From: an uncultured Solirubrobacterales bacterium
Lineage (GTDB): Bacteria > Actinomycetota > Thermoleophilia > Solirubrobacterales > 70-9
Reading direction: 5' to 3'
Length of the DNA stretch: 64,000 bases
Assembly (NCBI GenBank): GCA_963767285.1
Contig: CAVYDJ010000003.1
Span: forward strand, 365,049 to 429,048
The translations under genes and the position numbers were made by a program. The notes below the pieces were generated by a model. That model had not been told where the DNA came from. It did not search any database and saw only the letters and a list, made by a program, of their open reading frames with translations. Below, one piece after another: positions 10,459 through 29,353 of this stretch (its first letter is position 1; the number at the start of each line of letters is the position of its first letter).

Positions 10459-12084
10459 CTAGCCCAGGGTGCTGACCCCGGGGGGAGCGTCCGCCGCCTG
10501 CGCGGCGGCGATGCGCTTGCGGTGGGTGCGGATCTCGCTGAGGATCCGCTCCAGGCGCGGCTCGGTGCTGGAATCGACGTGGGTCATCGCCGCGGCGACC
10601 GCCGGGTGCACCTGCGCGATCCGCTCGTGCATCGCCTGGGCGACGGCGCGATAGGTCGGGTGGCCCTCGCGCCCGGAGCGCAGCTCGCAGAGGTGCATCG
10701 CCTCGCGCGCGTTCAGGTCCAGCACGTAGCGGATCCGGTAGCCGAGGCAGAGCGCGTACGGCGCCGCCTCGACCAGACCCGCGGTCTCCAGCCGTTCGAA
10801 CTCCGCCCGCGATAGCTCCAGCGCCGCCTCGTATTCACTCCCGGCCCCGGCCTCGCGCACCTCGTCGGGGACGCCGGCCCCGAGCTCGGGGCCGAGGCGC
10901 TGCCATTGGCAGGTCAGCATGCGGTGGCGTTGGAGGTCGCGGAAGCCCCCGTAGTCGGAGACGATCTCGAACCGGTAGCGGACCGCCTCCCAGCCGCGCC
11001 CGGGCCGGTGGCGGCGGTTGCGCCGCTCGCCGGCCAGCTCGCCGATCAGCTCGGCGCGCTCGATCGGATCCAGGGTCGCGACGCGGCTGCGGATCTCGGC
11101 CTCCGGCGTCCCGGCCGACTCATAGAGCGAGGCGGCGAGCAGGTCCTCCTCCGAGCCGTCGACATGGACGAGCTCGACCGACGGGGCCCCGTCGCCCTCG
11201 CGGCGGTCGAGGCCGAGCCGGGCAACGGCCCGCTCGGTCGCCTCGCGGCGCTCGCGCAGGTGGGTGACCCAATCGCCGCCGCGGTCGGGCCGGTCGACCC
11301 GGGCGACGAAGCTCGGGATCACCCGCTGCAGCTCCTCCAGCAGCAGCTCGCCGTAGGCGCGCGCCTCCGGCAGAGGCGAGGCCGCCAGTCGCAGCAGCAG
11401 CTGCTCGTAGGCCTGGCCCGACGCGAAGATCCCGACGTGGCTGAGGGTCGCGGCGGGCAACAGGCCGCGCAGCAGGTCGAGCGCCTTCGCCCGGATCGAG
11501 CCGCGCCAGGCGCCCTCCGGCTGCTCGGCGTCACGGGGCCAGCGCTCCGCGGCCCACGCCTGGACGGTCTCGAGGCTGCGCGAGTAGATCCCGAACAACT
11601 CGTCCATCGCCTCCCCGTAGCGGGGGCCGAGGTCGCCGTCGGAGTAGTAGCGGTAGCCGCCGATCCCCTCGATCGGCTGGTCGTAGGGGATGTAGCGGGT
11701 CGACTGCTCGAGGTACGCGGCGAGCCGGCCGCGCTGCAGGACCTTGGTGAGCACGTTGGAGACCCACTCGCAGGCGACGTGGGCGCCGCCGACCTGGGCG
11801 ATCGAGTCGTCGCCGAAGCCGATGAAGACGCGCTCGTAGAGGCCCGCGGCGCGCTGCCCCTCGATCCCGTCGAACGGCCGCTCGCCGGCCGGCACGTCGC
11901 CGGCGAACTCCTCCAGGAACATCCGCCGCAGCGTCCCGGGGTATCGCGAGTAACGCGCGAACATCGCCCCCTTGACGGTCTCCGGCAGGTTGACGAGCCC
12001 GAATACCGGCCGGTCGAGGTTGGTGAAATGCGGCTCCAGGAGCCGGCGCTCCTCGGGACTGAACTCCTCGCTCGGGTACCGCAC
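10459..12084 (-). CDS. Long-form ThyX-family (FAD-dependent thymidylate synthase-like) protein
   Basis: About 540 aa, roughly twice a normal ThyX. C-terminal half has the ThyX signature FRDLQRHRMLT. N-terminal half is ThyX-like but degenerate (AMFARYSRYPGTLRRMF). Start GTG 12084 is provisional; the ORF extension to 12522 overlaps the divergent gene. Confidence 0.65.
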   Translation of the reverse strand: MRYPSEEFSPEERRLLEPHFTNLDRPVFGLVNLPETVKGAMFARYSRYPGTLRRMFLEEFAGDVPAGERPFDGIEGQRAAGLYERVFIGFGDDSIAQVGGAHVACEWVSNVLTKVLQRGRLAAYLEQSTRYIPYDQPIEGIGGYRYYSDGDLGPRYGEAMDELFGIYSRSLETVQAWAAERWPRDAEQPEGAWRGSIRAKALDLLRGLLPAATLSHVGIFASGQAYEQLLLRLAASPLPEARAYGELLLEELQRVIPSFVARVDRPDRGGDWVTHLRERREATERAVARLGLDRREGDGAPSVELVHVDGSEEDLLAASLYESAGTPEAEIRSRVATLDPIERAELIGELAGERRNRRHRPGRGWEAVRYRFEIVSDYGGFRDLQRHRMLTCQWQRLGPELGAGVPDEVREAGAGSEYEAALELSRAEFERLETAGLVEAAPYALCLGYRIRYVLDLNAREAMHLCELRSGREGHPTYRAVAQAMHERIAQVHPAVAAAMTHVDSSTEPRLERILSEIRTHRKRIAAAQAADAPPGVSTLG

Positions 12085-14292: not shown

Positions 14293-15826
14293 TCAGCCGA
14301 GCAGGCTGCCGATCGCGTCGCCCGCCGCGTTCGCCCAGTCGACCAGCGGCGAGGGGATGATCCCGAAGAAGACCGTCGCCGCGGTGACCAGCAGGGTCAG
14401 GCCGAGGATCACCTTGCAGCGGGCGCCGGTCACCTCGGCGTCAGCCTCCTGCGAGCCGCCCGCGATCGCCGGAGCTGGGGCACCGGCCGCGGGTTCGGCG
14501 CCCGGGCGCATCCAGACGGCCGCGATCACCCGCAGGTAGTAGGCGAGCGAGATCATCGTCCCGATCGCGATCATCACGCCGAGCCAGGTGTAGTCGGCGG
14601 CGACCGCGGCCTCGATCAGATACAGCTTGCCGATGAAGCCAACCGTGCCCGGGGAGACCGGCGAGCGCCAGCATCGAGACGGTCAGCGCGGTCGCCAGGA
14701 AGGGCCGTTCGGCGCCCAGTCCCTGGACCGAGCGGATGTCGTCGCCGAACGCCGTCTCGCGCTCGCGGATCGTGATCACCGCGAACGCCCCCAGGTTCAT
14801 CAGCGCGTAGGCCGCGAGATAGAAGACCAGCGCATTCACGCCCGCCTCGCTGGCCGCGACCACGGCGACCATCATGTAGCCGGCCTGGGCGACGCTCGAG
14901 TAGCCGAGCAGGCGCTTGAGCGAGTTCTGACCCAGCGCGCCGGCGTTGCCGACCACGATCGAGACCGCCGCCAGCGCCGCCAGCGCCGGCCGCCAGTCAT
15001 CGGCCGCGGCGCCGAGCGCCACCTCGAAGAAGCGGACCAGGACGCAGAACACGGCGGCCTTGGTCGCCACCGACATGAACGCCGTCACCGGGGTCGGCGC
15101 GCCCTGATAGACGTCGGGCGTCCACTGGTGGAAGGGGGCGATCGAGAGCTTGAACGCGAGACCGGTGGCGGCCAGCGCGATCCCGATCAGCAGCAGCGGG
15201 TCGTCGACCACCGAGGTGCCGACCGCGGCGCGGATCCCCGAGAAGTCGGTCGACCCGGTCGCCCCGTAGACGAAGGCGAGCCCGTAGAGCAGCGTCGCCG
15301 AGCCCAGAGAGCCGATGATCAGGTACTTCAGCCCCGACTCGAGCGACTCCTTGCGCCGCAGCGCGGCGCCGCAGAGGACGTATAGCGGGATCGAGAGCAG
15401 TTCGAGGGCGACGAAGAACGCGACCAGGTTCTGGGCCTGGGTGATCATCGTCATCCCGAGCACCGAGCAGAGCAGCAGCGCCTGGAACTCGCCGTGGCCG
15501 CTCGGCCCCAGCGGCCGGTCGAAGGCCTGCTCGCGCCACGACAGCGGGATGCAGAAGGCAGCGGCGCCGATGCAGATCAGGCTGGTCGTGATCGCCAGGT
15601 CGTCGAGCCGCAGGGCGCCGGCGATCAGGTCCTTGTGGGCGCCCCACTGGGCGATCAGCAGCCCGGCGGTGACGCCGAGGGTGGCGAAGCCGACGATCGA
15701 GACGACGATCCGCTGCTGCTTCCGGCTGCCGAACAGGCCCGCGACGAGCGCCAGCACGGTCCCGGCGGTCAGCGCGATGATCGGCGAGATGCCCGCGTAG
15801 TTGATGTCGGGAGCGTTGAACTCCAT
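14293..15826 (-). pseudogene. nuoN: NADH-quinone oxidoreductase subunit N, interrupted by an apparent 1-nt insertion (+1 frameshift) at 14648-14654
   Basis: ORF 14441..15826 is NuoN up to ...MLALAGLPG, then turns into Arg-rich nonsense. The conserved continuation TVGFIGKLYLIEAAVAADYTWLGVMIAIGTMISLAYYLRV runs in the frame of ORF 14293..14577. Total length is 1534 nt (3n+1). Confidence 0.85.
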
Positions 15827-17319
15827 CAGCGCTCCGCCTCGGCCAGAACCTGTGATTCGCCGGTGGCCGCCTCGACCGCCGCCTCGACCGACTTCTCGCC
15901 CCGCTCCAGGATCAGGCCCGGATAGAACGCCAGGGCCACGATGATCGCCACCAGCGGCGCAAGGACGATCCCGTCGCGGACCCCGATCTCACGCGACTCG
16001 GCGCCCTCGGGGAGGCGGTTGTGCATCGCCCGCTGGTACATCCTCAGGCTGTAGAAGGCGGCGAGCGCGATCCCGATCGAGGCGACGAAGGCGAGGACGA
16101 TCTTCGACTGGAAGACGCCGTTGAGGATGTAGAACTCGCCGATGAAGTTGGCCGAGCCGGGGATCGCCAGGTTCGCCATCGCGATGACCAGGAACAGCGC
16201 CGCCAGGAAGGGCGCCCGCATCGCCTGGCCGCCCATCCGCGTCAGGTCCTCCGTCTTGAAGCGGTCGTAGAGGATCGCGATCACCATGAAAACGCCGGCG
16301 ACGACCAGGCCGTGGTTGACCATCTGCAGGACGGCGCCGTCGGCTCCGTCGGCGCGCAGGCTGAAGATCCCGATCGTGATGAAGCCGAGCTGCGCGATCG
16401 ACGAGTAGCCCGCGATCAGGCGGACGTTGGTCTGCGTGAACGCCATCACCGAGCCGTAGAGGATCGAGGCCAGCGCGACCAGCATGATCAGCTCCTGGAA
16501 CTCGGTGGTCGCCTCGGGGAAGAGCGGCAGCGCGACGCGCAAGAAGCCGTAGGCGCCGACCTTCGACAGGACTGCCGAGAGCAGGATCAGGACCGGCAGG
16601 GGAGCCGCCCGGTAGGCGTCGGGCATCCAGCCGTGGATCGGGAAGGCCGGCATCTTGACCAGGAAGGCCGCGGCGAAGAAGCAGAAGATCCACTCCTGGC
16701 TGCCGCTCGACAGCAGGTGCTGCGAGAGCACCGGGATCGAGAAGCTGAGCTCGCCGACCGAGTCCGACGCGAGGACCGCGGTCGCGATCGCGCCGACCAG
16801 CATCAGCAGCGAGCCGACGAGCGTGTAGACGATCATCTTCGTCGTCGCCGCGATCCGGTTCTCGCCGCCGAAGGTCCCGATCAGGAAGAAGAACGGGATC
16901 AGCATCAGGTCGAAGAAGAGGACGAACAGCAGCAGGTCCTGGGCGAGGAACGCGCCCAGCGCGGCGGTCCCGGCGAGGCCGACGAGGAAGTAGTAGAGCT
17001 TCTCGCGCTCGTCGCCCGGCTCGCCGCGAAGCGCCGACCAGAGCGTCACCGCAAACCAGAGCGCCGCCGTCAGCAGAACCAGGAAGACGCTGATCCCGTC
17101 GACGCCGAGGAAGTAGCGGACCCCGAGGTCGGGGATCCAGGACTCGTCGATCACGTGCTGCAGGCCGGCGGCATCGGGGTCGAAGTCGGCGACCAGCCCG
17201 ATCGCCAGCCCGAGCGTCACGAGGGCGCCGAGAACGGCCACCCAGCGCGCCGCCACCCGCGGCAGGAGCAGGATCAGAACTCCGGTGATCAGCGGCGTCC
17301 ACAGCAGCACGCTGAGCAT
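15826..17319 (-). CDS. nuoM: NADH-quinone oxidoreductase subunit M
   Basis: Starts MLSVLLWTPLITGVLILLLP at ATG 17319, overlapping the nuoL stop (TGATG). Antiporter-like 14-TM protein. Its stop overlaps the nuoN ATG (TGATG). Confidence 0.9.
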   Translation of the reverse strand: MLSVLLWTPLITGVLILLLPRVAARWVAVLGALVTLGLAIGLVADFDPDAAGLQHVIDESWIPDLGVRYFLGVDGISVFLVLLTAALWFAVTLWSALRGEPGDEREKLYYFLVGLAGTAALGAFLAQDLLLFVLFFDLMLIPFFFLIGTFGGENRIAATTKMIVYTLVGSLLMLVGAIATAVLASDSVGELSFSIPVLSQHLLSSGSQEWIFCFFAAAFLVKMPAFPIHGWMPDAYRAAPLPVLILLSAVLSKVGAYGFLRVALPLFPEATTEFQELIMLVALASILYGSVMAFTQTNVRLIAGYSSIAQLGFITIGIFSLRADGADGAVLQMVNHGLVVAGVFMVIAILYDRFKTEDLTRMGGQAMRAPFLAALFLVIAMANLAIPGSANFIGEFYILNGVFQSKIVLAFVASIGIALAAFYSLRMYQRAMHNRLPEGAESREIGVRDGIVLAPLVAIIVALAFYPGLILERGEKSVEAAVEAATGESQVLAEAER

Positions 17320-19325
17320 CAGTTGCTCACCGCCAGGAAGTAGACGCCGAGCGCCGCGAAGCCCCCGACGAGGAGTAGCGCGTAGGCGCGCACCAGACCG
17401 GACTGGGCGCCGCGGACGACCGAGCCGGCGCCCTTGACGACCCCGGTTGCGGCGCCGACGATCCCGTTGACGACGACCCGCTCGATGACCGCGTTGGCAA
17501 AGCGCCCGGTCGCGATCGCCGGCCGGTAGATCAGCGCGTCGATTACCTCGTCGAAGTACCACTTGTTGAGGAGGAAGCCGTGCAGGCGGCGGTACCGCTC
17601 GGCCATCCGCACCGTGACCCCGGGCCGCCGCACGTAGCAGTGGTAGGCGAACGCGATCCCGATGATCGAGATCGTGCCGCCGACGAGCAACCCGATCCAG
17701 GAGTCCGCGGTCGACGGCTCCTGGTGGTAGAGAGTCGAGCTCTCGAACGTCCCCGCGAGGAAAGTGGTGACGACGTGATCGACGCCCGGGACCTGCAGGA
17801 GGCCGGCGAACAGGGCGCCGAAGCCGAGGATCCCCATCGCGACCCGCATCGGCCATTCGCGCTCGGCGATGTGGTGCTCCTCACCTGGGAACCCGACGTC
17901 GACGTCTTCGGCCTCGCCGGTGTGCGGGTTGGTCGGCTCGGCGTGGTGCATGTGCCCCTGCTCGAGCTCCTCGGCCTCCTTGCACGGTTTACCGGCGGTG
18001 ACCCGGAAGCCGATCCGGAACGCGTAGAAGGCGGTCATCAGCGCCCCGATGTAGCCGCCGATCGCGAAGATCCAGTACATGCCGCCGCGGTTGGCGGCGA
18101 AGGCGAGGATCTCGTCCTTGGAGAAGAAGCCGGACGTCCCCGGGAAGGCCGCCAGCGCGAGGCAGCCGACCAGCAGCAGGGCCGACGTGAACGGCAGCGC
18201 CTTGCGGAAGCCGCTCATGTCGTCGACGTTCTGGTTGTTGGCCATCGCCGAGATCACCGAGCCGGCGGCCATGAACAACAGCGCCTTGAAGAAGGCGTGT
18301 GCCATCAGCATGAACAGGCCGCCGACGTAGGCGCCGATCGCGACGCCCATGATCATGTAGCCGATCTGGCTCATCGTGGAGTAGGCGATGATCCGCTTCA
18401 GGTCGGTGACCGCGAGCGCAATCGTCGCCGCGATCAACAGCGTCGCGAGGCCGACGAAGGCGGCGATGTCCGCGGCGGTCGGCGCGAGCTCGAAGAGCGG
18501 GAACATGCGGGCGATCAGATAGACGCCGGCGGTGACCATCGTCGCGGCGTGGATCAGCGCCGAGACCGGCGTCGGGCCCTCCATCGCGTCCGGGAGCCAG
18601 GTGTGGAACGGGACCTGGGCGGACTTCGCGAACGCGCCGACGCAGATCAGCAGGCAGATCGCGACCACCACGCCCTGGTTGGGGGAGAAGGTCTCACGGG
18701 CGGCGTCGAACGACGCCAGGTAGTCGAACGTCCCGAGCTCGCGGAAGACGAAGAAGGCGGCGAGCACGAGGCCGATGTCGCCGACGACGTTGATCACGAA
18801 CGCCTTCATGCCCGCCTTGGTCGCGGTCTCGCGCCGGTACCAGAAGCTGATCAGCGCGTAGGAGGCGAAGCCGACGAAGGCCCAGCCGACGATCAGCAGC
18901 ACGAAGTTGCCGGCCAGGATCAGCAGCAGCATCGAGAAGACGAAGAAGTTGAGGTAGGAGAAGAACCGCGCGTAGCCGCGGTCCGAGCCCATGTAGGCGA
19001 GCGAGTAGAGGTGGATCAGGGTCGAGATCCCCGTGACCACCAGGCACATGTAGACCGACAGCGGGTCCACCAGGATGTTGAGCTGGATGTCGAGCCCGCC
19101 CGCGGAGGCGTAGCTGTAGAGCGAGTCGGTGAGCTGGCGCTCCTCGACGGGGTGGTCGAGCAGCGCCAGCAGCGCGCCGATTGAGCAGGCGAAGGCGAGC
19201 GCGATCGCGCCGGTCCCGATCCAGGCAGGCGTGCGGCCCGGCATCGCGGCGCGGCCGAAGGCGATCAACATGCTGCCCGCGAGCGGGAGGACCAGCACGA
19301 GCCAGCCCCAGGTCGTCGCGCTCAT
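17319..19325 (-). CDS. nuoL: NADH-quinone oxidoreductase subunit L
   Basis: 668 aa. MSATTWGWLVLVLPLAGS..., an antiporter-like subunit with the long C-terminal lateral-helix region. Confidence 0.92.
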   Translation of the reverse strand: MSATTWGWLVLVLPLAGSMLIAFGRAAMPGRTPAWIGTGAIALAFACSIGALLALLDHPVEERQLTDSLYSYASAGGLDIQLNILVDPLSVYMCLVVTGISTLIHLYSLAYMGSDRGYARFFSYLNFFVFSMLLLILAGNFVLLIVGWAFVGFASYALISFWYRRETATKAGMKAFVINVVGDIGLVLAAFFVFRELGTFDYLASFDAARETFSPNQGVVVAICLLICVGAFAKSAQVPFHTWLPDAMEGPTPVSALIHAATMVTAGVYLIARMFPLFELAPTAADIAAFVGLATLLIAATIALAVTDLKRIIAYSTMSQIGYMIMGVAIGAYVGGLFMLMAHAFFKALLFMAAGSVISAMANNQNVDDMSGFRKALPFTSALLLVGCLALAAFPGTSGFFSKDEILAFAANRGGMYWIFAIGGYIGALMTAFYAFRIGFRVTAGKPCKEAEELEQGHMHHAEPTNPHTGEAEDVDVGFPGEEHHIAEREWPMRVAMGILGFGALFAGLLQVPGVDHVVTTFLAGTFESSTLYHQEPSTADSWIGLLVGGTISIIGIAFAYHCYVRRPGVTVRMAERYRRLHGFLLNKWYFDEVIDALIYRPAIATGRFANAVIERVVVNGIVGAATGVVKGAGSVVRGAQSGLVRAYALLLVGGFAALGVYFLAVSN

Positions 19326-19621
19326 CCCTTCAGCTCCCGGATCTCGTCGACGTCGAGGGCGATCTGGCGGCGGAACATGGCGACGATCAGGCCGAGCCCG
19401 ACGACCACCTCACAGGCCGCGACGACCATCACGATCAGCGCGAAGATCTGGCCCTCCTGGTTGCCGTTCGAGCGCGCGAAGGCGACCAGGGCGAGGTTGC
19501 CGGCGTTCAGCATCAGCTCGAGGCAGAGCAGGATCACCAGCGGGCTGCGCCGCAGGAGCACCCCGCACGCGCCGGTGGCGAAGAGGAGCGCTGAGAGGAC
19601 GAGGTACCAGGAGGTATCCAT
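19322..19621 (-). CDS. nuoK: NADH-quinone oxidoreductase subunit K
   Basis: 99 aa MDTSWYLVLSALLFATGACGVLLRRSPLVILLCLELMLNAGNLALVAF. The ORF extension to 19942 overlaps nuoJ. Confidence 0.9.
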   Translation of the reverse strand: MDTSWYLVLSALLFATGACGVLLRRSPLVILLCLELMLNAGNLALVAFARSNGNQEGQIFALIVMVVAACEVVVGLGLIVAMFRRQIALDVDEIRELKG

Positions 19622-19623
19622 GA

Positions 19624-20187
19624 TCAGCCGGCCTCGCCCGAGTCGACACCCGGCACGCCCGGAGGCGAAGCTGAGGACGTGGCCGGTTTGTTCCGGCCCG
19701 CGAGCACGATCGCGCCGACGGCGGCGATCAGCAGCAGCATGGAGGCGGCCTCGAAGGCGACCAGGAAGCGCTCGAGCAGGAGCCGCCCGATCTCGCCCGG
19801 CGAGCCGAAGCCGGCCGGGATCACCGGGCCCTCGGTCTCGATCGACACGAGCGAGGTGCCGACGACGGCGATCGAGACCTCCACAAACAGGGCGGCAGCC
19901 AGCAATGGGGCGAGGAAGCGCTGCCCCGGGATCGGCTCCCACAGCGGCTCCTCGATCCCGCCGACGTAGGCGGCGACGAACAGGTAGAGGACCATGACCG
20001 CACCGGCATAGACGACGATCTGCGCCGCCGCCAGGAACTCCGCGTGCAGGAGCAGGAACAGCCCGGCCAGCGAGATCAGGTGGACGATCAGCGCCAGCAC
20101 GCTGTAGAAGGGATTGCGAAGCGCGATCACCGCGATCGCGCCGCCAAGCGCACCAATCGCCCCGGCGAAGAACGCCACTTGAACCAC
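19624..20187 (-). CDS. nuoJ: NADH-quinone oxidoreductase subunit J (C-terminal tail encoded by repeat copy A)
   Basis: GTG start 20187. MVQVAFFAGAIGALGGAIAVIALRNPFYSVLALIVHL. Tail is GRNKPATSSASPPGVPGVDSGEAG. Confidence 0.9.
   Translation of the reverse strand: MVQVAFFAGAIGALGGAIAVIALRNPFYSVLALIVHLISLAGLFLLLHAEFLAAAQIVVYAGAVMVLYLFVAAYVGGIEEPLWEPIPGQRFLAPLLAAALFVEVSIAVVGTSLVSIETEGPVIPAGFGSPGEIGRLLLERFLVAFEAASMLLLIAAVGAIVLAGRNKPATSSASPPGVPGVDSGEAG
19647..19694 (-). repeat. nuo-operon repeat, copy A (in frame in the nuoJ 3' end)
   Basis: Minus strand reads GGAACAAACCGGCCACGTCCTCAGCTTCGCCTCCGGGCGTGCCGGGTG. Confidence 0.8.
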
Positions 20188-20229
20188 TACGCGGCCACCT
20201 CCTCGGCTTCGCCTGCGGGGGTGCCGCGG
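20181..20229 (+). repeat. nuo-operon repeat, copy D (nuoI-nuoJ spacer, includes the nuoJ SD and start)
   Basis: Plus strand reads GAACCACTACGCGGCCACCTCCTCGGCTTCGCCTGCGGGGGTGCCGCGG. Confidence 0.8.
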
Positions 20230-20249
20230 TTAGCCGGCGAGCTGCTCAC

Positions 20250-20810
20250 TCACTCCCCTTCCCGCCGCAGGGGGTTGCGCTCGAGCGGCTCGGCGAGCAG
20301 CATCTCCTTGGTGAAGATCAGGTCGCCACGGTCGTAGTCGGCCATCTCGTACTCGTGGCCCATCGTGATCGCGTCGAACGGGCAGGCGACCTCGCAGTAG
20401 CCGCAGAAGATGCAGCGGGCGAGGTTGATCTCATAGACGGCGGCGTAGCGCTCGCCGGCCGAGACGCGATCGGCCGGGTCGTTCTCGGCGGCGACGACCC
20501 GGATGCAGTCCGCCGGGCAGGCCGCGGCGCACAGCGAGCAGCCGACGCACTTCTCCAGGTCCGTGTCCTCGAACTTGTGCAGCTTGTGGCGGCCGCGGAA
20601 GCGCGGGTAGACCGGCGTCTTCTCCTCCGGGTACTGGATCGTCATCGGGCCTTCGAAGACGCGCGCCAGCGTCGTCTTCAGGCCGCGCAGGGTCTCACCG
20701 AAGGCGCGGTAGGCGCCCTTCGCGCCGCCGGGCTCCGGCCCGCGCTGGACCGAGACGACCTCGTCGGCGTCCTTCAGATAGGGGAACTCGGACTTGGCTT
20801 CTTCGCTCAT
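20250..20810 (-). CDS. nuoI: NADH-quinone oxidoreductase subunit I (2x[4Fe-4S] ferredoxin)
   Basis: ATG 20810 overlaps the nuoH stop (ATGA). [12 protein letters not shown] and [12 protein letters not shown] cluster motifs. Confidence 0.92.
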
Positions 20811-21805
20811 GCCACCACCACCAGCACCGCCGTGACGAGGATGTTCAGGGTCGCCAGCGGCAGCAGCACCTTCCAGCCGAGGCTCATCAGCTGGTCGTAG
20901 CGCAGCCGGGGCAGGGTCGCGCGGACCCAGATGAAGACGACGATCAGGGCGAAGATCTTGGCCAGCATCCAGATCGGGTCGAGCCACTCGGGACCGGGGC
21001 CCATCCAGCCGCCGAGGAAGAAGGCGACCGCGATCCCCGAGATGACGAAGATCTCCAGGTACTCGGCGAGCAGGAAGGAGGCGAAGCGGGTGCCGCCGTA
21101 CTCGGTCTGGTACCCCTGAACCAGCTCCGCGTCCGCCTCGGGCAGGTCGAACGGAGTGCGGTTGCTCTCCGCGAACCCGGCGAGCATGAAGACGATGAAG
21201 CCGACGAACTGGGGGATGATGTTCCAGACCTCGCCCTGGGCCTCGACGATCGAGACCAGCGAGAGCGAGCCGGACATCAGGATCACGCCGAACAGCGAGA
21301 GCCCCATCGCGACCTCGTAGGAGATCAGCTGGGCGGCGCCCCGCATCGCGCCGAGGAAGCTGTATTTCGAGCCCGATGACCAGCCGGCGATCAGCAGGCC
21401 GTAGAAGGCGAACGAGCCGAACGCGAAGAAGTAGAGGACGCCGATCGGGACGTCGATCCCATACCAGCCGACCCCGTCGTGGACGTCGCCGAAGGGCAGG
21501 ATCGCGATCGTCGTGATCCCGGAGAAGATCACCAGCGCCGGCCCGAGCGCGTAGAGGAACGGGATCGCCGCGTCGGGGCGGAAGAACTGCTTGCCGGCCA
21601 GCTTGATGATGTCGGCGAGCGGTTGCATCAGCCCGACCGGCCCGACCCGGTTGGGCCCGTAGCGGTGCTGGAAGCGGCCGATCGCCTTGCGCTCGACCAC
21701 CGTCAGGACCGGGACGATCATGAACACGACCAGGAAGATCAGGATCGACTTCACGACCATGATCCAGGTCGCCTCGGTGAAGCTGGTGTCGGCGAGGGGA
21801 ATCAC
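20807..21805 (-). CDS. nuoH: NADH-quinone oxidoreductase subunit H
   Basis: GTG 21805 overlaps the nuoG stop (GTGA). [29 protein letters not shown] signature. Confidence 0.92.
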
Positions 21806-21847
21806 GGCCCGGCCACCTCCTCGGCTCCGCCTGCGGGGGTGCCGGGG
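21798..21847 (+). repeat. nuo-operon repeat, copy E (encodes the last 14 aa of NuoG; includes the nuoH SD and start)
   Basis: Plus strand reads GGAATCACGGCCCGGCCACCTCCTCGGCTCCGCCTGCGGGGGTGCCGGGG. Confidence 0.8.
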
Positions 21848-24270
21848 TCAGCCGAGATTCGAGTGATCTCCACCGTTTCCGCGCCGTTGAAGACGTTCGC
21901 GTTGTGCTGCGCGGTGCCCTCGATCAGGAAGGCCGCGCCGGGTCGAATGCGCTCGCGGAGGGTGACCCGTGCACGAACGCTCGTCCCGTTCGAGCGCACG
22001 TTGACCTCGTCGCCGTTGGCGAGGCCGAGCTTCTTCGCGTCCGAAGGTGCCAGCTCCACCCGCTGCTCGGGTGCGAGGAACTTCAGCGCCACATTGCGGT
22101 CGGTGACCTCGTTCGCCCACAGGTCGCGATACGTCCCGAGGCGCAGGCCCCCATTCGCGGACGGCGCGGCGACGGTCGCCGGCGTCTCGGTCTCAGGCGG
22201 CTTGAACGACGACGCCGCATCCCGGTCCTGCCAGCGGACTCCGGTGCCGCCGATCTCCTTGGGGTTCAGGCCGCCGTAGAACGGGACCTCATTGGCGATC
22301 GCTTCGAGTGCCTCGGGGGCCGAGTCGATCTCGGTTTCGTCGCCGAGGCGGGCGCTGAGCTCGGCAAGGACCTGCCAGATCGGGCGGACCTCGCCGGGGC
22401 GGGGGACGGAGGGCCGGAGGCGCTGGAGGCGGCCGTCCGGGTGGGTGACCGTGCCCTCCTTCTCGGCGTAGGCCTCGGCGGGGAACACGATGTCCGCCGC
22501 CTTCGTGGAGGCGTCCTCGAAGCTCGAGATCGCGATCACGGTGCGGGCCTGGTTCAGCGCCTTCGCCCAGCCCGGACCGTCGGGGAGGTCGCGGATCGGA
22601 TCGGCCTGCAGCAGGATGACGCCGTCGAGCTCGCCGGAGGCGAGGCCCTGCTTGATCGCTTCGAGGTCGTCGCCGGAGCCCGCGGCGGTGAGCCCGGGAC
22701 CGGCGCCGGGGACACAGCCGACCTCGCGGATTCCGCGGGCGTTGGCGCCGTCGGGGACGGAGAAGACGCCGCCGCCCGCTCCGGCGCACTTGAGCTCGGC
22801 GGCGCAGTTGCGTAGCGCGTTAAGGGCGCCTTCGCCGTTCGGTCCGCGGCCGATCCGCTCGCCCCAGATGATCAGCGTCCTGCCCGGGCGCAGCTCGCCG
22901 GCGAGGCGCTCGGCGTCCCCCACATAATCGCCCCGCACGCCCGGAGCCGAAGGCGAGGACGTGGCGGGAGTTGTTCCGTGGCTGAGCTGCGCGGCTAGTG
23001 CAGCCAGGAACGCCGCCGCTTCGCCGGGGGCGTAGCGGGCGGTCTCCTCGGCGCCGCCGTCAAGCGCCGTCGGGCGGTCCGAGGCGATCACCAGACGCAG
23101 CTGGTGGTGGCGAACCGCCTTGCGCAGCCGCAGATCCAGGATCGGCATCGAGTTCAGCGGGTCGGCTCCGATCAACAGCACCGATTCGACCTCGTCGATC
23201 GCGGCGATCGGGGCCCCGAGCTCGGGTGAGGAGAGCGCCGCCAGCGGCCCGGCCGGGAGCTCGTCGATCGCCGTTGCGTTGCCACCGGCGATCCGCTGCA
23301 CCAGGTACGCCTCCTCGTTGGAGGCCGGGCCGCCGGCGATCGCGGCGATCCGGCCGGCGCCGAGCTTCGCCGCGGCGACCTCGAGCGCCTGCTCCCAGCC
23401 GGCCTTGTTTCCCGCGATTCGCGGCTCGATGATCCGGTCCTCGGAGGAGATCATCTGGAAGCCGAAGCGGCCCTTGTCGCAGAGCCAGCCGTTGTCGACC
23501 TCGTGGTTGTCACGCGCCAGGACGCGCTGGACCCGCTCGTCGCGGACCGTGAACTTGACGTTGCATTGGCTCGGGCACAGCGTGCAGATCGAGCCCGCGT
23601 CCTCGATGTCCCAGGGCCGGGCGCGGAACCGGTAGGCCTCGGCGGTGAGGGCGCCGACGGGACAGAGCTCGATGATGTTGCCGTGGAAGGGGGCGATGTA
23701 GGGGCGGTCGTTGAAGGTGCCTACATAGCTGTTCGACCCCCGCTCGAGCAGCTGCAGCTGCTCGTCCTCGGCAACCTCCTGGCTGAAGCGCACGCAGCGG
23801 TAGCAGAGGATGCAGCGCTCGCGGTCGATCCGGACCAGCGGCGAGAGCGGCACCGGCTTGCGGAAGTGGCGTTTCGGGTCCGTGACCCGGCTGCGGCCCG
23901 GCCCCCAGCCCATCGCGATGTCCTGCAGGGGGCACTCGCCGCCCTTGTCGCAAACCGGGCAGTCGAGCGGGTGGTTGACGAGCAGGAACTCGACCACCGC
24001 GTTCTGGGCCTCGATCACCCGGTCGGTGCGGGTGTAGACGACCATCCCGTCGCGCACCGGGGTCGAGCAGGCGGTCTGGAGCTTGGGGATCCCCTCGATC
24101 TCGACCAGGCACATCCGGCAGGCCCCGACCGGCCCGCCGAGCTTCGGCTCGTAACAGAAGACCGGGATCTCGACGTCGCCGCCCTTCGCGGCGTCGACGA
24201 GCATCTCGCCCTCGGGGGCGTTCACCTCGACGCCGTCGACGACGAGCGTGATCTCGGGCCGCTCGGTCAT
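21802..24270 (-). CDS. nuoG: NADH-quinone oxidoreductase subunit G (contains repeat copies C and E in frame)
   Basis: ATG 24270 overlaps the nuoF stop (ATGA). N-terminal 2Fe-2S/4Fe-4S motifs ([37 protein letters not shown]). 822 aa. Confidence 0.92.
22931..22977 (-). repeat. nuo-operon repeat, copy C (in-frame insertion inside nuoG)
   Basis: Minus strand reads GGAACAACTCCCGCCACGTCCTCGCCTTCGGCTCCGGGCGTGCGGGG. Confidence 0.8.
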
Positions 24271-25532
24271 GCCGCCAGGACCTCCGGCTGCTCCATGGCT
24301 TCCTCGAACTCCGAGCGGAACTTCTTCACCATCGCGCCGACCGGCATCGCCATCGAGTCGCCGAGCACGCAGAGGCAGTTGCCGATGATGTTCTCCTGCA
24401 CGCCGGCGACGACCTCGAGGTCGATCGGCGTCGCCTCGCCGCGGGTGATCCGCTCCAGCATCTTCACCGTCCAGTTGGTGCCCTCCCGGCAGGGAGTGCA
24501 CTTCCCGCAGGATTCGTGGTGGTAGAAGCGCGCCGTGCGCAGCGCAAGCTTGGGGATCGAGACGGTGTCGTCGGCGACGATGATCGACCCCGAGCCGAGC
24601 ATCGAGCCGGCCTCGGCCATCGCCTCGAAGCTGTAGGGCAGGTCGAGCTCGGCCTCGGTCAGGACGGGCGACGACGAGCCGCCCGGGAACCAGGCCTTCA
24701 CCCGCCGGCCCTCGGGCAGGCCGCCCGCGAGGTCGAAGATGATCTCCCGCGAGGGGACCCCGAGCTCGACCTCGTAGTTGCCGGGCCGCTCCACGCAGCC
24801 GGAGATCGAGACGACCTTCGTGCCCGGCGACTGTTCGGTGCCGAATCCCTTGAACCAGTTCGAGCCGTTGTTGACGATGTGGGGCAGGTTCGAGAGCGTC
24901 TCGACGTTGTTGATCAGCGTCGGGCCGCCGTACAGGCCCTGGATCGCCGGGAACGGCGGCTTCAGCCGAGGGTTGCCGCGCTTGCCCTCGAGCGCGTCGA
25001 GCAGCGCCGTCTCCTCGCCGCAGATGTAGGCGCCGGCGCCGCGGTGGACGACCAGCTCCACCCTGGTCCGGGCGCCGAGGATGTTGGGCCCGAGGTAGTC
25101 GGCCTCGTACGCCTCGGCGACGGCGCGGTCGAGGATGTCAGCGATCTCCCAGTACTCGCCGCGGATGAAGATGAACGCGTGCTGGGCGCCGACCGCGATC
25201 GCCGCGATCGCGACGCCTTCGATCAGCTGATGGGGGTTCTTCATCATCAGCTCGCGGTCCTTGAAGGCGCCGGGCTCCGACTCGTCGGCGTTGCAGCAGA
25301 CGTACTTCGCCATCTCGCCGCGCGGCAGGAAGGAGCCCTTCTTGCCCATCGAGAAGCCGGCGCCGCCGCGCCCGCGCAGGCCAGAGTCCTCGAACCCGGC
25401 GATCAGGTCGCCGGGCTCGAGCTCCCTGACCGCGCGCTCCAGCGCCTTGTAGCCGCCGAGCTCGCGGTAGCGATCGATCGACGCCAGCTCCGGGTCGTCG
25501 ATATGGCGGAAGAGGAGCCGCGTTTCAGGCAA
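24267..25532 (-). CDS. nuoF: NADH-quinone oxidoreductase subunit F (NADH/FMN-binding)
   Basis: GLRGRGGAGFSMGKK, the FMN/NADH motifs, and ESCGKCTPCREG 4Fe-4S motif. Confidence 0.93.
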   Translation of the reverse strand: MPETRLLFRHIDDPELASIDRYRELGGYKALERAVRELEPGDLIAGFEDSGLRGRGGAGFSMGKKGSFLPRGEMAKYVCCNADESEPGAFKDRELMMKNPHQLIEGVAIAAIAVGAQHAFIFIRGEYWEIADILDRAVAEAYEADYLGPNILGARTRVELVVHRGAGAYICGEETALLDALEGKRGNPRLKPPFPAIQGLYGGPTLINNVETLSNLPHIVNNGSNWFKGFGTEQSPGTKVVSISGCVERPGNYEVELGVPSREIIFDLAGGLPEGRRVKAWFPGGSSSPVLTEAELDLPYSFEAMAEAGSMLGSGSIIVADDTVSIPKLALRTARFYHHESCGKCTPCREGTNWTVKMLERITRGEATPIDLEVVAGVQENIIGNCLCVLGDSMAMPVGAMVKKFRSEFEEAMEQPEVLAA

Positions 25533-26250
25533 CGTCCGTCCCCTCCATCCGCGGGTCGGGATCGGGCTCCGCGCCCCCCGCCGCCGGGCGCCTGCTGAGC
25601 GCCTTCTCGTCCGGCGGCGGATTGCCGGCGCGCAGGGCGTCGATTGCGGCGACCGCGTCGGCCGCGTCCAGCGGCCCGTAGTAGCGCTCGTCGATCGAGA
25701 CCATCGGCGCCAGGTCGCATGCGCCCAGGCACTCGAAGCCCTTGACGAAGAACTCGCCGTCCGCCGAGCTGGCCCCGTGGTGGGCGGCCTCGTGGTGGTC
25801 GGCGCCGGCCGCCTCGCAGAACGACTCCAGCAGCTCGTCGCCGCCGTTCATCCAGCAGGAGATGTTGGTGCAGACCAGGACCCGGTGGCGGCCGACCGGC
25901 TGAGTGGCGAACAGGTCGTAAAACGAGGCGACCGACTCCAGGTAGGCGGGGGTGACTCCCATCACCGCGGCGGCCTGGCGGATCCCGTCCGGCGTGCACC
26001 AGCCGTAGTGGCGCTGGACCGCCCACAGCGCCGGGATCGACGCCGAGCGCAGCTGCGGGTAGCGCGACATCGCCGACTCGATCTGCTCCTGGAGCTCCGG
26101 CGGGATGTCGACCTCGTGCAGCTCCGGCACTCCCTCGGCGTCGGAGGGGCGCATGGAGGCGATCAGCCGCTTGCGCTCCTCGGCGGTGAGGTCGTCCGTC
26201 GGCTCGAGCAATGAGAGCTCGGGCTGCTCAGAGGTCACGTCCTCGACCAC
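25525..26250 (-). CDS. nuoE: NADH-quinone oxidoreductase subunit E (2Fe-2S)
   Basis: VCTNISCWMNG...ECLGACDLAPM thioredoxin-like 2Fe-2S motif. GTG start 26250. Confidence 0.9.
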   Translation of the reverse strand: MVEDVTSEQPELSLLEPTDDLTAEERKRLIASMRPSDAEGVPELHEVDIPPELQEQIESAMSRYPQLRSASIPALWAVQRHYGWCTPDGIRQAAAVMGVTPAYLESVASFYDLFATQPVGRHRVLVCTNISCWMNGGDELLESFCEAAGADHHEAAHHGASSADGEFFVKGFECLGACDLAPMVSIDERYYGPLDAADAVAAIDALRAGNPPPDEKALSRRPAAGGAEPDPDPRMEGTDVA

Positions 26251-26313
26251 CGCGCACGCCCGGAGGCGAAGCCGAGGACGTGGCGCGAGTTATTCACGTG
26301 GCGCGAGATATTC
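26250..26313 (-). repeat. nuo-operon repeat, copy B (nuoD-nuoE spacer) with an 18-nt internal tandem duplication
   Basis: Minus strand reads GAATATCTCGCGCCACGT GAATAACTCGCGCCACGTCCTCGGCTTCGCCTCCGGGCGTGCGCGG. Confidence 0.8.
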
Positions 26314-26314
26314 C

Positions 26315-27604
26315 TCATCGATCCACCCCGCCGAGGATCGGATCCAACATCCCGAGGTTCTGGATCAGGTCGGCGACGTACCCGCCGATGCACATGTCGC
26401 GCAGGCTCTGGAGGTTGACGAACGAGGGGTCCCGGAAGTGGACCCGGGCCGGCTTCGCCGAGCCGTCGGCGAGGATGTAACAGCCGAGCTCGCCGCGCGG
26501 CGACTCGATCGGGTTGTAGATCTCGCCCGGCGGAACGCGGAAGCCCTCGGTGACGAGCTTGAAGTGATGGATCAGCGCCTCCATCGAAATCGCGAGCTCC
26601 TCGCGCGGCGGCAGCACGACCTTGCGGTCGTCGGCGATCCACGGTCCCTCGGGCAGCCCGTCGAGGCACTGCTCGATGATCCGCACCGACTCGCGCATCT
26701 CCTGCATCCGGCAGCGGTAGCGGTCATAGCCGTCGCCGACCGTGCCGACCGGGATCTTGAAGTCGACGTCGCCGTAGGCGAGGTAGGGGGCGGCCTTGCG
26801 GAGGTCCCACGGCTCGCCCGAGGCGCGCAGCAGCGGCCCGGTCACACCGAGCTCGAGCAACCGCTCGCGGGGAACGATCCCGACCCCTTTCGTCCGCGAC
26901 AGCCAGATCTCGTTGCGGTCGACCAGCGCCTCGTACTGGCTGATCCGGGTCGGCATGTCGTCCAGGAAGGCGCGGAGCTTCTTCTCGAACCCGACCGGGA
27001 TGTCCTCGAAGACCCCGCCGACCTGGAAGTAGCGGGTGTGCATCCGCTGGCCGGTCGACATCTCGAACAGGTCGATGATCGTGTCGCGCTCGCGCAGCGC
27101 GTACCAGAGCATCGAAACCGCGCCCAGGTCAAGCGCCGTAGTCCCGAGCCAGAACAGGTGCGAGTGGATCCGGTTGAGCTCGAGGTGGATCATCCGCAGG
27201 TACTTCGCGCGGGGCGGGATCTCGAGCTCGAGCATCCGCTCGACGGCGCCGCAGAAGGCCTCCATGTTGAAGAAGTAGGACAGGTAGTCCATCCGCTCGA
27301 TGAACGGGATCACCTTCCAGTAGCTCTTGTCCTCGCAGCTCTTCTCGATCCCGGTGTGGACGTAGCCGACGATCGGCTTGAGGTCGATCACCTCCTCGCC
27401 CTGGAGGCTGACCAGCAGGCGCAGCACCCCGTGCGTGGCGGGGTGGTGCGGCCCCATGTTCACGGTCATCAACTCGTGCTCGGGCTCGAGGGTCTCCCCG
27501 GCCTCGGTGGTCTCGATCGGCGAGGTGCCGATCACCGTTGCCGTCGTCGCGGCGATCACGTCCCCGCCCCTTGCCGGCGCGCTGCCTACTTCCTCGACCG
27601 CCAC
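26315..27604 (-). CDS. nuoD: NADH-quinone oxidoreductase subunit D
   Basis: MTVNMGPHHPATHGVLRLLVSLQGEEV...GGVDR C-terminus. GTG 27604 overlaps the nuoC stop by 1 nt (TAGTG); an alternative GTG lies about 45 nt downstream. Confidence 0.88.
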   Translation of the reverse strand: MAVEEVGSAPARGGDVIAATTATVIGTSPIETTEAGETLEPEHELMTVNMGPHHPATHGVLRLLVSLQGEEVIDLKPIVGYVHTGIEKSCEDKSYWKVIPFIERMDYLSYFFNMEAFCGAVERMLELEIPPRAKYLRMIHLELNRIHSHLFWLGTTALDLGAVSMLWYALRERDTIIDLFEMSTGQRMHTRYFQVGGVFEDIPVGFEKKLRAFLDDMPTRISQYEALVDRNEIWLSRTKGVGIVPRERLLELGVTGPLLRASGEPWDLRKAAPYLAYGDVDFKIPVGTVGDGYDRYRCRMQEMRESVRIIEQCLDGLPEGPWIADDRKVVLPPREELAISMEALIHHFKLVTEGFRVPPGEIYNPIESPRGELGCYILADGSAKPARVHFRDPSFVNLQSLRDMCIGGYVADLIQNLGMLDPILGGVDR

Positions 27605-28179
27605 TACTCCTCCGACCAGCCCGGAGCCGAGCGCTCGTTGTGGGTGAAGATCACCGGCTCGCCGCCGATCGGGAAGTCGCGGCGCTGCGGCCACCCGACG
27701 TAGACCTCCGGCATCAGGATCCGGCGCAGGTCCGGGTGGCCGCGGAAGAAGATCCCGAAGAAGTCGTAGACCTCGCGCTCCTGGAAGTCGGCGGTCGGGA
27801 ACAGCGGCACGCAGCTCTCGATCGACGGCAGCAGCATCCCGTCGACCTCCTCGGTCTCCCCGGTCGACGGTCCGGAGGGCGCGCCGGGATCGGGGATCGC
27901 CGCCCGCACCCGGATCCGCTCGACCCGGTCGCGGTTGAGGAGCTCGTAGTGGACCCCGAAGCGCGGCTCGGCCGGCAGGTAGTCGACGCCGTGGAGGCTC
28001 GCGAGGAACCTGTACTCCTGGCCCGGCGTATCCCGCAGCCAGCGCAGCACCTCGAGGACCTGGTCGGGGTCGACGATCAGGCACGCCTGTCCGTGCTCGT
28101 GGTAGGTGCCGAGGACGCTGTCGGGGTGGGCGTCGCGCAGCTCGCCGGCGATCAGCTCGAGGCCGGGCGCGTCAGGCAC
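27604..28179 (-). CDS. nuoC: NADH-quinone oxidoreductase subunit C
   Basis: FPTADFQEREVYDFFGIFFRGHPDLRRILMP signature. Start GTG 28179 (MPDAPGLELIAGEL) chosen because upstream codons lie within repeat copy F. Confidence 0.85.
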   Translation of the reverse strand: MPDAPGLELIAGELRDAHPDSVLGTYHEHGQACLIVDPDQVLEVLRWLRDTPGQEYRFLASLHGVDYLPAEPRFGVHYELLNRDRVERIRVRAAIPDPGAPSGPSTGETEEVDGMLLPSIESCVPLFPTADFQEREVYDFFGIFFRGHPDLRRILMPEVYVGWPQRRDFPIGGEPVIFTHNERSAPGWSEE

Positions 28180-28183
28180 GGTC

Positions 28184-28235
28184 AGAACAACTCCCGCGGC
28201 TGCTCGGCTTCGCCTCCGCTGCCGCGGGGTGCGGG
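28184..28235 (+). repeat. nuo-operon repeat, copy F (nuoB-nuoC spacer), most diverged
   Basis: Plus strand reads AGAACAACTCCCGCGGCTGCTCGGCTTCGCCTCCGCTGCCGCGGGGTGCGGG. It shares GAACAACTCCCGC with copy C and CTCGGCTTCGCCTCC with A and B. Confidence 0.65.
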
Positions 28236-28274
28236 CCGACGCCCACACAGGCGACTGGGACGGCAGCTTCGTCG

Positions 28275-28997
28275 CTACTTCGCATCGCGCACCGCCTCAC
28301 GCGCCTGCGCGTAAGCCGCCTCGGCCGCCTCGGAAGGCTGGCCGGCGATCACGTCGTCGCGCGCCCATTCCTCGGTGCCGATCGCGTTGTAGCGGCGGCG
28401 CCAGCCCATGTCCGGGTGCCCCTGGATCTGGTGCTGCAGCTTGCCGAAGCCGTAGAAGAGCGCCTCGGGTCGGGGCGGACAGCCGGGCACGTGGATGTCG
28501 ACCGGCATGAACTTGTCGGCGCCCTGGACGACCGCGTAGTTGGCGAACATCCCTCCCGACGAGGAGCAGGCGCCCATCGAGATCGCCCACCGCGGCTCGA
28601 GCATCTGGTCGTAGAGGCGGCGGATGACCGGCGCCATCTTGATCGAGACGCGGCCCGACAGGATGATGAAGTCGGCCTGGCGCGGCGAGGCCCGCAGCGC
28701 CTCCGCCCCGAACCGCGCCTGGTCGTTGCGGGGGGACCCGACCGCGGCGATCATCTCGATCGCACAGCAGGCGAGCCCGAACGTCAGCGGGAACATCGAG
28801 TTCGAGGCTCCCCAGGCGAGCAGCTTCTCGAACGACGTCGTCAGCACCGCCTGCGAGACGTGCTCCTCGAGGTCCTCATCGGGGAGGTCGCCGCGAAGCA
28901 GGTCGCGGGCGCGCAGCTGGCGGACCCGCAGGTGCTCGGGGGAGCCCGGCTCGGCGAGCGGGGACAGCGCCCGCAGCTTCTCGCGCCTTACCTCCAA
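28275..28997 (-). CDS. nuoB: NADH-quinone oxidoreductase subunit B
   Basis: [10 protein letters not shown]...[16 protein letters not shown]...[11 protein letters not shown]...[13 protein letters not shown]3 stays coding-like up to TTG 28997 (10-nt overlap with nuoA), so the start is provisional. Confidence 0.85.
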
Positions 28998-29353
28998 TCG
29001 AGCGCACCCCGGCGCCAGACGTAGCCCAGCGCGACGAGCAGCAGCGTCACGAAGATCAGCAGCTCGACGAGTACGAAGACCGAGTCGGCCGCCTGGAAGA
29101 TCACCCCGACCGGATAGAGGAAGACGACCTCGATGTCGAACAGGATGAAGAGCATCGCGATCATGTAGAAGCTGACCCCGAAGCGGAAGGTTCGGGAGAC
29201 CTCGCTCGGCAGCCCGCACTCGTACGGCTCGGTCTTCACCGAGCGGCCGCGGACGCCCTTGCGGCCGATGATCACGTTCAGCAGGGCGAAGGCCCCGCCG
29301 ACGATCGCGCCGAGGGCGATAAAGACGAGGACGGGCAGGTAACTCTCCAGCAC
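28988..29353 (-). CDS. nuoA: NADH-quinone oxidoreductase subunit A
   Basis: 121 aa, three TM helices, EPYECGLP and [13 protein letters not shown] signatures. Confidence 0.9.

Follow-up and report, generated by a model that had tools for sequence, protein, structure and literature searches.

A candidate translated relay between nuoI and nuoJ across an inserted hairpin repeat in an uncultured Solirubrobacterales bacterium

What becomes of the stop/start overlap that joins two genes of an operon when a hairpin-forming repeat is inserted into it? The question is raised by the nuo operon of an uncultured Solirubrobacterales bacterium, found in a 64,000-nt stretch of contig CAVYDJ010000003.1 (positions 365,049 to 429,048; GenBank assembly GCA_963767285.1) that is referred to below as the window. 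Read along the mRNA, i.e., on the minus strand, the nuoI stop codon TGA (20252-20250) directly abuts a GTG (20249-20247) opening a mini-open reading frame (mini-ORF) of 20 codons, VSSSPANRGTPAGEAEEVAA, whose TAG (20189-20187) shares the G at position 20187 with the GTG start codon of nuoJ (20187-20185). An earlier note on this DNA had drawn attention to this arrangement, to a Shine-Dalgarno (SD)-like sequence, GAGGAGGTGG, lying 7 nt before the nuoJ GTG, and to TGATG overlaps at the nuoL/nuoM and nuoM/nuoN junctions; all of these are indeed present in the sequence, the 7 nt between GAGGAGGTGG (20204-20195) and the GTG being CCGCGTA. Stop/start overlaps such as TAGTG are typical of translationally coupled genes. 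As to the gene ends, an independent gene caller run on the related locus L001 (ENA ERZ25039516 contig_31929, 99.78 % identical to the window) agrees to the base for nuoI and nuoJ and leaves the 62 nt between them unannotated. This label, like L008, L110, L190 and others below, designates a related locus from public contigs that was compared with the window. The reading that we favour, with some reserve, is that the mini-ORF is a translated relay which restores nuoI-nuoJ coupling across an inserted hairpin repeat.

The history of this junction can be followed in relatives. Their nuoI-nuoJ junctions, of which 47 were recovered and further ones added via protein look-ups, are hypervariable: in some the two genes share 1 nt (TGATG or TAATG) or 4 nt (GTGA), in others they are separated by 0-37 nt or by an element-bearing spacer. 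The closest NuoJ relatives, L190 (90 %) and L201 (88 %), have an empty site reading GAG TAG TG, and other empty sites read TGATG (L110) or TAATG (L111). Moreover, a soil-metagenome contig (run X2) lacks exactly the 63 nt of positions 20189-20251, the joint being ambiguous by 2 nt, and also yields GAG TAG TG, joined between the T and the AG of the stop codon; further soil-metagenome contigs cover the spacer. The empty sites, together with the contig that skips the insert, show that the element brought neither the TAGTG overlap nor the nuoJ start, both of which are ancestral, and the nuoJ start of the window is homologous in position to the ATG or GTG of relatives. On these comparisons, the nuoI/nuoJ spacer is a 63-nt repeat insertion between the T and the AG of an ancestral nuoI stop codon that overlapped the nuoJ GTG; the first bases of the insert rebuilt the nuoI stop (T+GA), and the old TAG now ends the mini-ORF. 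Within the last nuoI codons (R-E-G-E), the purine-rich GGGAAGGGGAG is homologous to GAGGGCGAG/GGGAGGGCGAG, which directly precede TAGTG or TGATG in L190, L201 and L110. This type of stretch is probably the native nuoJ SD sequence, now placed just upstream of the mini-ORF GTG.

In at least 12 of the relatives' loci, 0.4-5 kb of foreign genes stand between nuoI and nuoJ. Loci split in this way include L119, L132, L133, L137, L139, L141 and L192-L198, among others; the intervening gene is for instance an opposite-strand SCO4226-like gene, and another type resembles a 3-demethylubiquinone methyltransferase.

Comparison with the junctions of relatives, which the earlier note had proposed, finds the bridging ORF kept in two orthologous copies, L191 and L008. 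The spacer is 62 nt long in the window (and identical in L001), with 0 nt between the nuoI TGA and the mini-ORF GTG; it is 63 nt long in L191, with 1 nt at this position and the mini-ORF VSSQAADRGTPGAEGEEVAA, and 61 nt long in L008, with 2 nt and the mini-ORF VILAADPGTPGREAEEVAG. The nuoI frame differs across the three loci, and the homologous GTG stays in frame with TAGTG in three out of three. The sole indel inside the mini-ORF among these orthologues is of 3 nt, and the loop-proximal part of the stem varies by compensatory swaps. When the 62-nt spacer was subjected to mononucleotide shuffling, a bridging ORF, i.e., an ORF beginning on or adjacent to the nuoI stop and terminating at the nuoJ start, arose in 1.1-2.5 % of the trials; if the ancestral TA preceding the GTG was kept constant, it arose in 1.5-3.7 %. 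Other spacers at this junction, which arose independently, are likewise spanned by ORFs that end on TGATG: VGEPGESAG in the 31-nt spacer of L003, MTRPHTGHRRPPR in the 37-nt spacer of L084, where the ATG overlaps the nuoI TGA, and VSDELLVASCSLLG in the 36-nt spacer of L199/L200, made of 7-nt tandem repeats. This last spacer (positions 2465-2500 of L199/L200) consists of four 7-nt units (GTTGCTA/GTTGCTC).

The supposition of the earlier note that the spacer derives from a repeat with dispersed copies is borne out by a family found in Solirubrobacterales metagenome-assembled genomes (MAGs). When prokaryotic genomes, one for each species, were scanned for the 20-nt core GGCGAAGCCGAGGASGTGGC, at least 108 exactly matching stretches were obtained, which belong overwhelmingly to such MAGs, often on many contigs of the same MAG, and lie beside unrelated genes. 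The conserved part spans ~40 nt, CSSG-GCAC(S)CCCG(S)AGGCGAAGCCGAGGA(S)GTGGC-CSSG, with weakly conserved flanks. Five strong copies and one degenerate copy are present in the window, all within the nuo operon (Table 1); the 20-nt core pattern is found 5 times in the window versus 0.12 expected by chance. Under uniform placement, the location of all six copies in the 15-kb operon (14294-29353) has a p of about 2e-4; nuo junctions are also repeatedly occupied in relatives.

Covariation was analysed in 85 distinct copies of the element. In these, 91 % of the stem cells are paired, and double-sided stem changes number 104, versus 45±4 in shuffles (0 of 500 reach 104) and no more than 28 when the partners are slid as a control; three pairs of the stem, 5-39, 6-38 and 11-32, alternate between C:G and G:C. 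The element hairpin is under selection. One covarying pair divides the copies into two subtypes, CACC...GGTG, giving the SD match GAGGAGGTGG, and CACG...CGTG, giving GAGGACGTGG. The SD subtype carries GGAGGTGG in its 3' arm and displays a non-significant trend towards one orientation (8:2 versus 7:7, p = 0.14). As RNA, the nuoI/nuoJ hairpin is predicted at -23.6 kcal/mol, with most of GAGGAGGUGG paired. All three frames of the element are open in either orientation. The loop region holds GCGAAGC (20206-20212 in the window, for example), which we take to be an unusually stable DNA mini-hairpin motif. With regard to what defines MITEs (miniature transposable elements with inverted repeats), the hairpin arms are inverted repeats, in terms of a target-site duplication the joints at nuoI/nuoJ show just a 2-nt GT ambiguity, and no parent insertion sequence (IS) was identified.

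An Rfam scan of the whole window gave no match at the element copies, its sole match being a c-di-AMP riboswitch at 45163-45310, and neither for Solirubrobacterales nor for Thermoleophilia did full-text literature searches return a description of the repeat. Three other views of the family were set aside. A regulatory motif specific to nuo was rejected because copies adjoin many unrelated genes (pth, hisH, hom, rsmA, trpB, purQ, rpsP), selection of the repeat as a peptide because conservation of the DNA extends to both orientations and to non-coding sites, and a CRISPR-like array because copies are single or directly abut without spacers (as in L119).

How the element sits relative to genes was assessed in an unbiased sample of 77 copies, every co-directional case being judged by eye: 17 copies are intragenic and in frame, 24 have co-directional genes on either side and 10 convergent ones. 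About 13 copies form the C-terminus of the upstream protein, with its stop overlapping the next start or lying at most 2 nt from it (nuoG/nuoH and nuoJ/nuoK in the window, L010, L048, L060, L084, L112-L114), and about six extend the downstream protein at its N-terminus, beginning at a start that shares bases with the stop of the preceding gene (L078, L079, L083, L092, L099, L020). The nuoG/nuoH copy has the layout that the earlier note had ascribed to it, i.e., GAGGAGGTGG, 7 nt (CCGGGCC) and GTG in a frame fused to NuoG, together with a GTGA overlap; this overlap at nuoH is present also in relatives without the element. Among copies inside genes, frame use is restricted to benign frames, as 13 of 13 forward copies read TPxGEAEEVA and the reverse ones ATSSASPPGV (7) or HVLGFASGRA (3), while the Arg-rich frames are never used by copies inside proteins.

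Exactly bridging mini-ORFs were found at nine junctions, of which about seven are independent. When spacers without the element were scored by the same rule, bridging ORFs amounted to 27 of 262 co-directional element-free spacers versus 7 of 17 independent element-bearing ones (Fisher p = 0.0017), an enrichment of about four times. In the window, a second bridging mini-ORF runs across the reverse-oriented copy between nuoD and nuoE, from an ATG (26318-26316) overlapping the nuoD TGA (26317-26315) to a TGA (26237-26235) overlapping a GTG (26238-26236) that is the candidate nuoE start. In L001 the 3' end of this ORF is ATGA, versus GTGA in the window, and the bridge is maintained. Bridging ORFs occur elsewhere in L007 (ATGA...ATGA), L013 (GTGA...GTGA) and L019 (TGATG...TGATG), and that of L131 has 61 codons. 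At nuoL/nuoM, L116 has one copy (6275-6305) and L119 three abutting copies with a 44-nt period (10965-11083), and both arrangements are bridged by a single ORF running from an ATGA at the nuoL stop to a TTGA at the nuoM start. Surviving copies between or inside co-directional genes are mostly read straight through, either as an in-frame fusion or as a relay ORF.

The earlier note had gone further and suggested that the repeat is a portable unit combining a coupling ORF, an SD sequence and a start codon. The repeat, its SD sequence and a bridging ORF hold at nuoI/nuoJ, but the element supplies neither the start codon nor the stop overlapping it, as the empty sites of L190, L201, L110 and L111 already have the stop/start overlap. 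Nor is the ORF a fixed property of the element, whose core is only ~40 nt and whose frames vary by locus.

Three further sites of the family deserve a description of their own. In the nuoB/nuoC spacer (28180-28275, minus strand), a 38-codon ORF has an 11-nt overlap with the end of nuoB and an 8-nt one with the nuoC GTG. At the site inside nuoG, L008 has the element in the opposite orientation (about 7393-7423, ...TPDRPAGEAEDVAA...), and L112 is without it. At the NuoJ tail, relatives (L003, L084, L110, L112-L114 and L125) have the element in one or the other orientation, its flanks being inverted along with it, which suggests a hot spot of repeated insertion or of inversion of the whole element.

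How might the mini-ORF act? In the mechanism that we propose, ribosomes ending nuoI, or binding at the old nuoJ SD sequence, would start at the mini-ORF GTG, where nuoJ formerly began. Their passage through the element would melt the hairpin that hides GGAGGTGG, and they would terminate on the ancestral TAG overlapping the nuoJ GTG, where re-initiation would be aided by the newly exposed SD sequence. Synthesis of nuoJ would then depend on translation of the mini-ORF, of which the C-terminal tryptic peptide would be GTPAGEAEEVAA. The relay peptide itself would have no function: relay ORFs also use the Arg-rich frames (L013, L116) that genic copies avoid, which argues for non-functional peptides.

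Several points weigh against this proposal. The sequence is present only in DNA soil metagenomes and its source is an uncultured MAG, and translation of the ORF is a matter of inference; open frames come cheaply at 70 % G+C, and the orthologous occupied nuoI/nuoJ sites number three only. Across the family, about 10 of the 17 independent element-bearing spacers have no bridging ORF, most of these being long and resembling operon boundaries. The count of 7 in 17 rests on gene starts read manually, a stronger but less objective procedure than the automated count, which used a simple codon-usage gene caller that missed several junctions and gave a weak enrichment (4 of 15 versus 27 of 262, p = 0.07).

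These points bear directly on the main rival explanation, according to which the mini-ORF is incidental, nuoJ initiates independently at the GGAGGTGG of the element and its GTG, and the frame is open because stops are rare in G+C-rich DNA. This we regard as possible but unlikely. The strong SD sequence of the element, 7 nt upstream of the nuoJ GTG and thus at a good spacing, would permit independent initiation if the hairpin breathes, and some copies provide an SD-like sequence to genes without upstream coupling (L083, minus strand, and L202). In L202, where a reverse-strand gene stands between nuoI and nuoJ, the element precedes nuoJ without nuoI upstream; there the element is kept, the ORF start is lost and the SD sequence is degraded to GAGGCGGTGG, in what is a single case. 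The exact bridge is, besides, partly inherited, its 3' TAGTG being ancestral, bridging ORFs also occur in 10 % of element-free spacers, and the nuoD/nuoE bridge arises in about 60 % of flank-fixed shuffles (57-61 % with the flanking ATGA and GTGA fixed). On the other hand, independent initiation would have to take place at an SD sequence paired within a -23.6 kcal/mol hairpin whose stem is selected, and it does not account for a GTG that is in frame in all three orthologues despite shifts of 0, 1 and 2 nt from the nuoI stop, for the bridging of shuffled spacers in just 1-4 % of trials, or for the enrichment of bridging ORFs at element-bearing spacers.

We hold it to be improbable that the main role of the hairpin lies at the RNA or DNA level, with its coding features as irrelevant side effects. 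It might then stabilise the mRNA, be a site of processing or of protein binding, or serve as a transposition substrate, roles of the kind proposed for REP elements. Stem covariation consists solely of G:C to C:G swaps, which are workable on either strand, copies occur in both orientations as well as between convergent genes (10 of 77), and six of them are gathered in one long operon, all of which would fit such a role. However, it leaves unexplained the single frame of the 13 forward genic copies and the near-universal read-through of junction copies to the next start. In addition, no T-tract terminator follows the hairpin, and a scan of 19500-20900 found no promoter-like or terminator-like site, so that a reading of the nuoI/nuoJ spacer as a terminator or an internal promoter was dropped. 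A role at the RNA or DNA level is compatible with the relay and does not exclude it.

Very improbable is that the nuoI TGA is read through or recoded, with the mini-ORF serving as a C-terminal extension of NuoI in parallel to the NuoG tail: in the window the mini-ORF starts right after the TGA and, the insert being 63 nt, lies in the nuoI frame, but it is in the +1 frame relative to nuoI in L191 and in the +2 frame in L008, on which grounds this candidate was rejected, and NuoI ends in ...REGE and a stop in all relatives. An assembly or polishing artefact at the hairpin is hardly credible, as the junction, which derives from a MAG and from an operon where L001 differs by clustered indels beside another copy (26171-26248), is identical in L001, is covered by soil-metagenome contigs and has homologous occupied counterparts in the independent metagenome contigs L008 and L191.

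Table 1. Features of the nuoI/nuoJ junction and copies of the element in the window
Feature	Position in window	Strand or orientation	Basis or remark
nuoI stop TGA	20250..20252	-	made when the insertion split the ancestral TAG; empty-site comparison
Purine-rich GGGAAGGGGAG in last nuoI codons (R-E-G-E)	20253..20263	-	sequence
Insertion, 63 nt = 21 codons, element hairpin and flanks	20189..20251	-	contig skipping it, empty sites
Mini-ORF, GTG, 20 codons (VSSSPANRGTPAGEAEEVAA), TAG	20187..20249	-	sequence; kept in L008 and L191
Imperfect element hairpin (CGCGGCACCCCCGCAGGCGAAGCCGAGGAGGUGGCCGCG), SD in 3' arm	20190..20228	-	predicted fold; covariation in 85 copies
SD-like GAGGAGGTGG, 7 nt upstream of nuoJ GTG, base-paired in hairpin	20195..20204	-	sequence, predicted fold
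nuoJ, 187 aa; C-terminal tail (...PATSSASPPGVPG...) from reverse-oriented element copy	19624..20187	-	sequence, relatives
Element copy, nuoI/nuoJ spacer	20192-20227	forward on mRNA	repeat search
Element copy, NuoJ C-terminal tail	19648..19689	+ (reverse on mRNA)	in frame; nuoJ TGA 2 nt before nuoK ATG
Element copy, NuoG C-terminus/nuoH	21809..21847	- (forward on mRNA)	SD subtype; in frame; NuoG TGA overlaps nuoH GTG (GTGA)
Element copy inside nuoG, variable linker	22931..22971	+ (reverse on mRNA)	inserted in frame
Element copy, nuoD/nuoE spacer	26249..26290	+ (reverse on mRNA)	repeat search
Second bridging mini-ORF, nuoD/nuoE, 27 codons (MRNISRHVNNSRHVLGFASGRARWSRT)	26235..26318	-	through reverse-oriented copy
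Degenerate sixth element copy, nuoB/nuoC spacer	28203..28232	- (forward on mRNA)	nhmmer E = 0.027

The translated relay proposed here has its closest analogue in the MIRUs of Mycobacterium. According to section 11 of one review, MIRUs insert at start codons and contain an internal ORF that is coupled to the gene at -4 nt, an arrangement believed to keep any effect on expression small (PMC12548453, citing Supply et al. 1997). As far as that section describes them, MIRUs share with the present element that both are short dispersed repeats at operon gene junctions, that an internal ORF is coupled to the flanking genes by stop/start overlaps at both ends, and that insertion is interpreted as having little effect on downstream expression (PMC12548453). 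An ORF of this type was found here at nuoI/nuoJ (TGA directly followed by GTG, ending in TAGTG), at nuoD/nuoE (ATGA...GTGA), and in L007, L013, L019 and L116/L119. The two differ in their hosts, Mycobacterium versus uncultured Solirubrobacterales, the comparison being one of described behaviour and not of sequence. They also differ in architecture, as the repeat studied here forms an imperfect hairpin that is under selection and conceals an SD sequence, occurs in both orientations and is often in frame inside proteins. MIRUs are typically tandem, with units of about 46-100 bp, whereas copies are mostly single here, the sole tandem array being that of L119 (3 units of 44 nt), and the ORF of the present element is not intrinsic, its frames differing by locus. 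With host and architecture differing in this way, membership of the MIRU family is unlikely.

Other known repeats share further traits with the element. Rickettsia palindromic elements (RPE) are described as palindromic repeats that are often inserted in frame in genes and translated (PMC10969869, section 4.2). In-frame, translated genic copies are likewise found here in 17 of 77 cases, including the nuoG interior, the NuoJ tail and the NuoG C-terminus in the window, and their frame use is strongly non-random. RPE differ by their length of about 100-150 bp and their restriction to Rickettsia, versus a ~40-nt core, a 63-nt insertion and Solirubrobacterales here, and neither intergenic relay ORFs nor SD content form part of the description of RPE in that section (PMC10969869). 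The likeness of the present element to REP/REPIN sequences lies in imperfect palindromes of ~35-40 nt, many copies per genome, compensatory stem changes, and a frequent location at gene 3' ends and between convergent genes. REP/REPIN sequences are extragenic by definition, have a conserved GTAG beside the stem, commonly form inverted pairs and are mobilised by RAYT (Y1) transposases. In contrast, 17 of 77 copies here are in frame within genes and more are fused to gene ends, the hairpins are mostly single, and the flank consensus has no conserved GTAG.

As for the mechanism, termination-reinitiation coupling and short upstream ORFs that are "ribosome-delivering" have been described (PMC12548453). 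The mini-ORF resembles these by the stop/start overlap or adjacency at both of its ends and by its proposed role, i.e., to deliver a ribosome and open a structure. The difference is that these constitute a mechanism and not a family, and that two coupling steps would here be chained by an inserted repeat. The principle has a precedent dating from 1997, that of the MIRUs, and by analogy would here be extended to a different, REP-like element.

Some other observations were made in the window. Of its 45 differences from L001, 12 cluster at 26171-26248 (3940-4017 in L001), indels included, beside the nuoD/nuoE copy, and in the window the 5' arm of the element pairs with the changed stretch (GGTCGAGGACGTG) in a stem of 13 pairs; this block has the look of templated change at a quasi-palindrome, of a recombination tract or of a difference in polishing. 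In nuoN, a 1-nt indel close to the 3' end (14647 in the window, 15541 in L001) alters the predicted C-terminus, the ORF being 461 aa long in the window versus 510 aa in L001, which could be strain variation or an assembly error. Outside the operon, the c-di-AMP riboswitch (RF00379, + strand) scores 71.5 bits against a gathering score of 38, and a repeat finder identified three 33-nt tandem units (ACGCCGCCGTCGAGCGG...) at 51982-52092, as well as a pair of 260-nt direct repeats (53184-53443 and 54174-54433) that are 990 nt apart and 77 % identical.

If the relay does operate, it would show how a selfish repeat can get into stop/start overlaps of 1 to 4 nt, and even into protein interiors, while an essential respiratory operon is still expressed, and a mechanism proposed only for MIRUs would extend to a REP-like element in a deep actinobacterial lineage. 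The empty sites, the 61-, 62- and 63-nt spacers and the arrangements of one to three tandem copies form a natural series for chained coupling through a structured spacer. There is also a warning for annotation, as NuoG, NuoJ and many other proteins gain short linker-like peptides from the copies, which also give rise to spacers in which gene callers annotate nothing. A broader view, which we offer tentatively, is that previously undescribed hairpin repeats of Solirubrobacterales colonise stop/start overlaps and coding regions because they are "translation-transparent": their hidden ribosome-binding site would be opened only by a ribosome coming from upstream, through an extended host protein or a relay ORF, and coupling would be rebuilt in two steps. 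If true, this would be a second, independent case of a strategy so far known only from mycobacterial MIRUs, here with a REP-like structure, and the notion that selfish repeats are filtered by translational coupling, and are able to rewire it, would become a testable idea.

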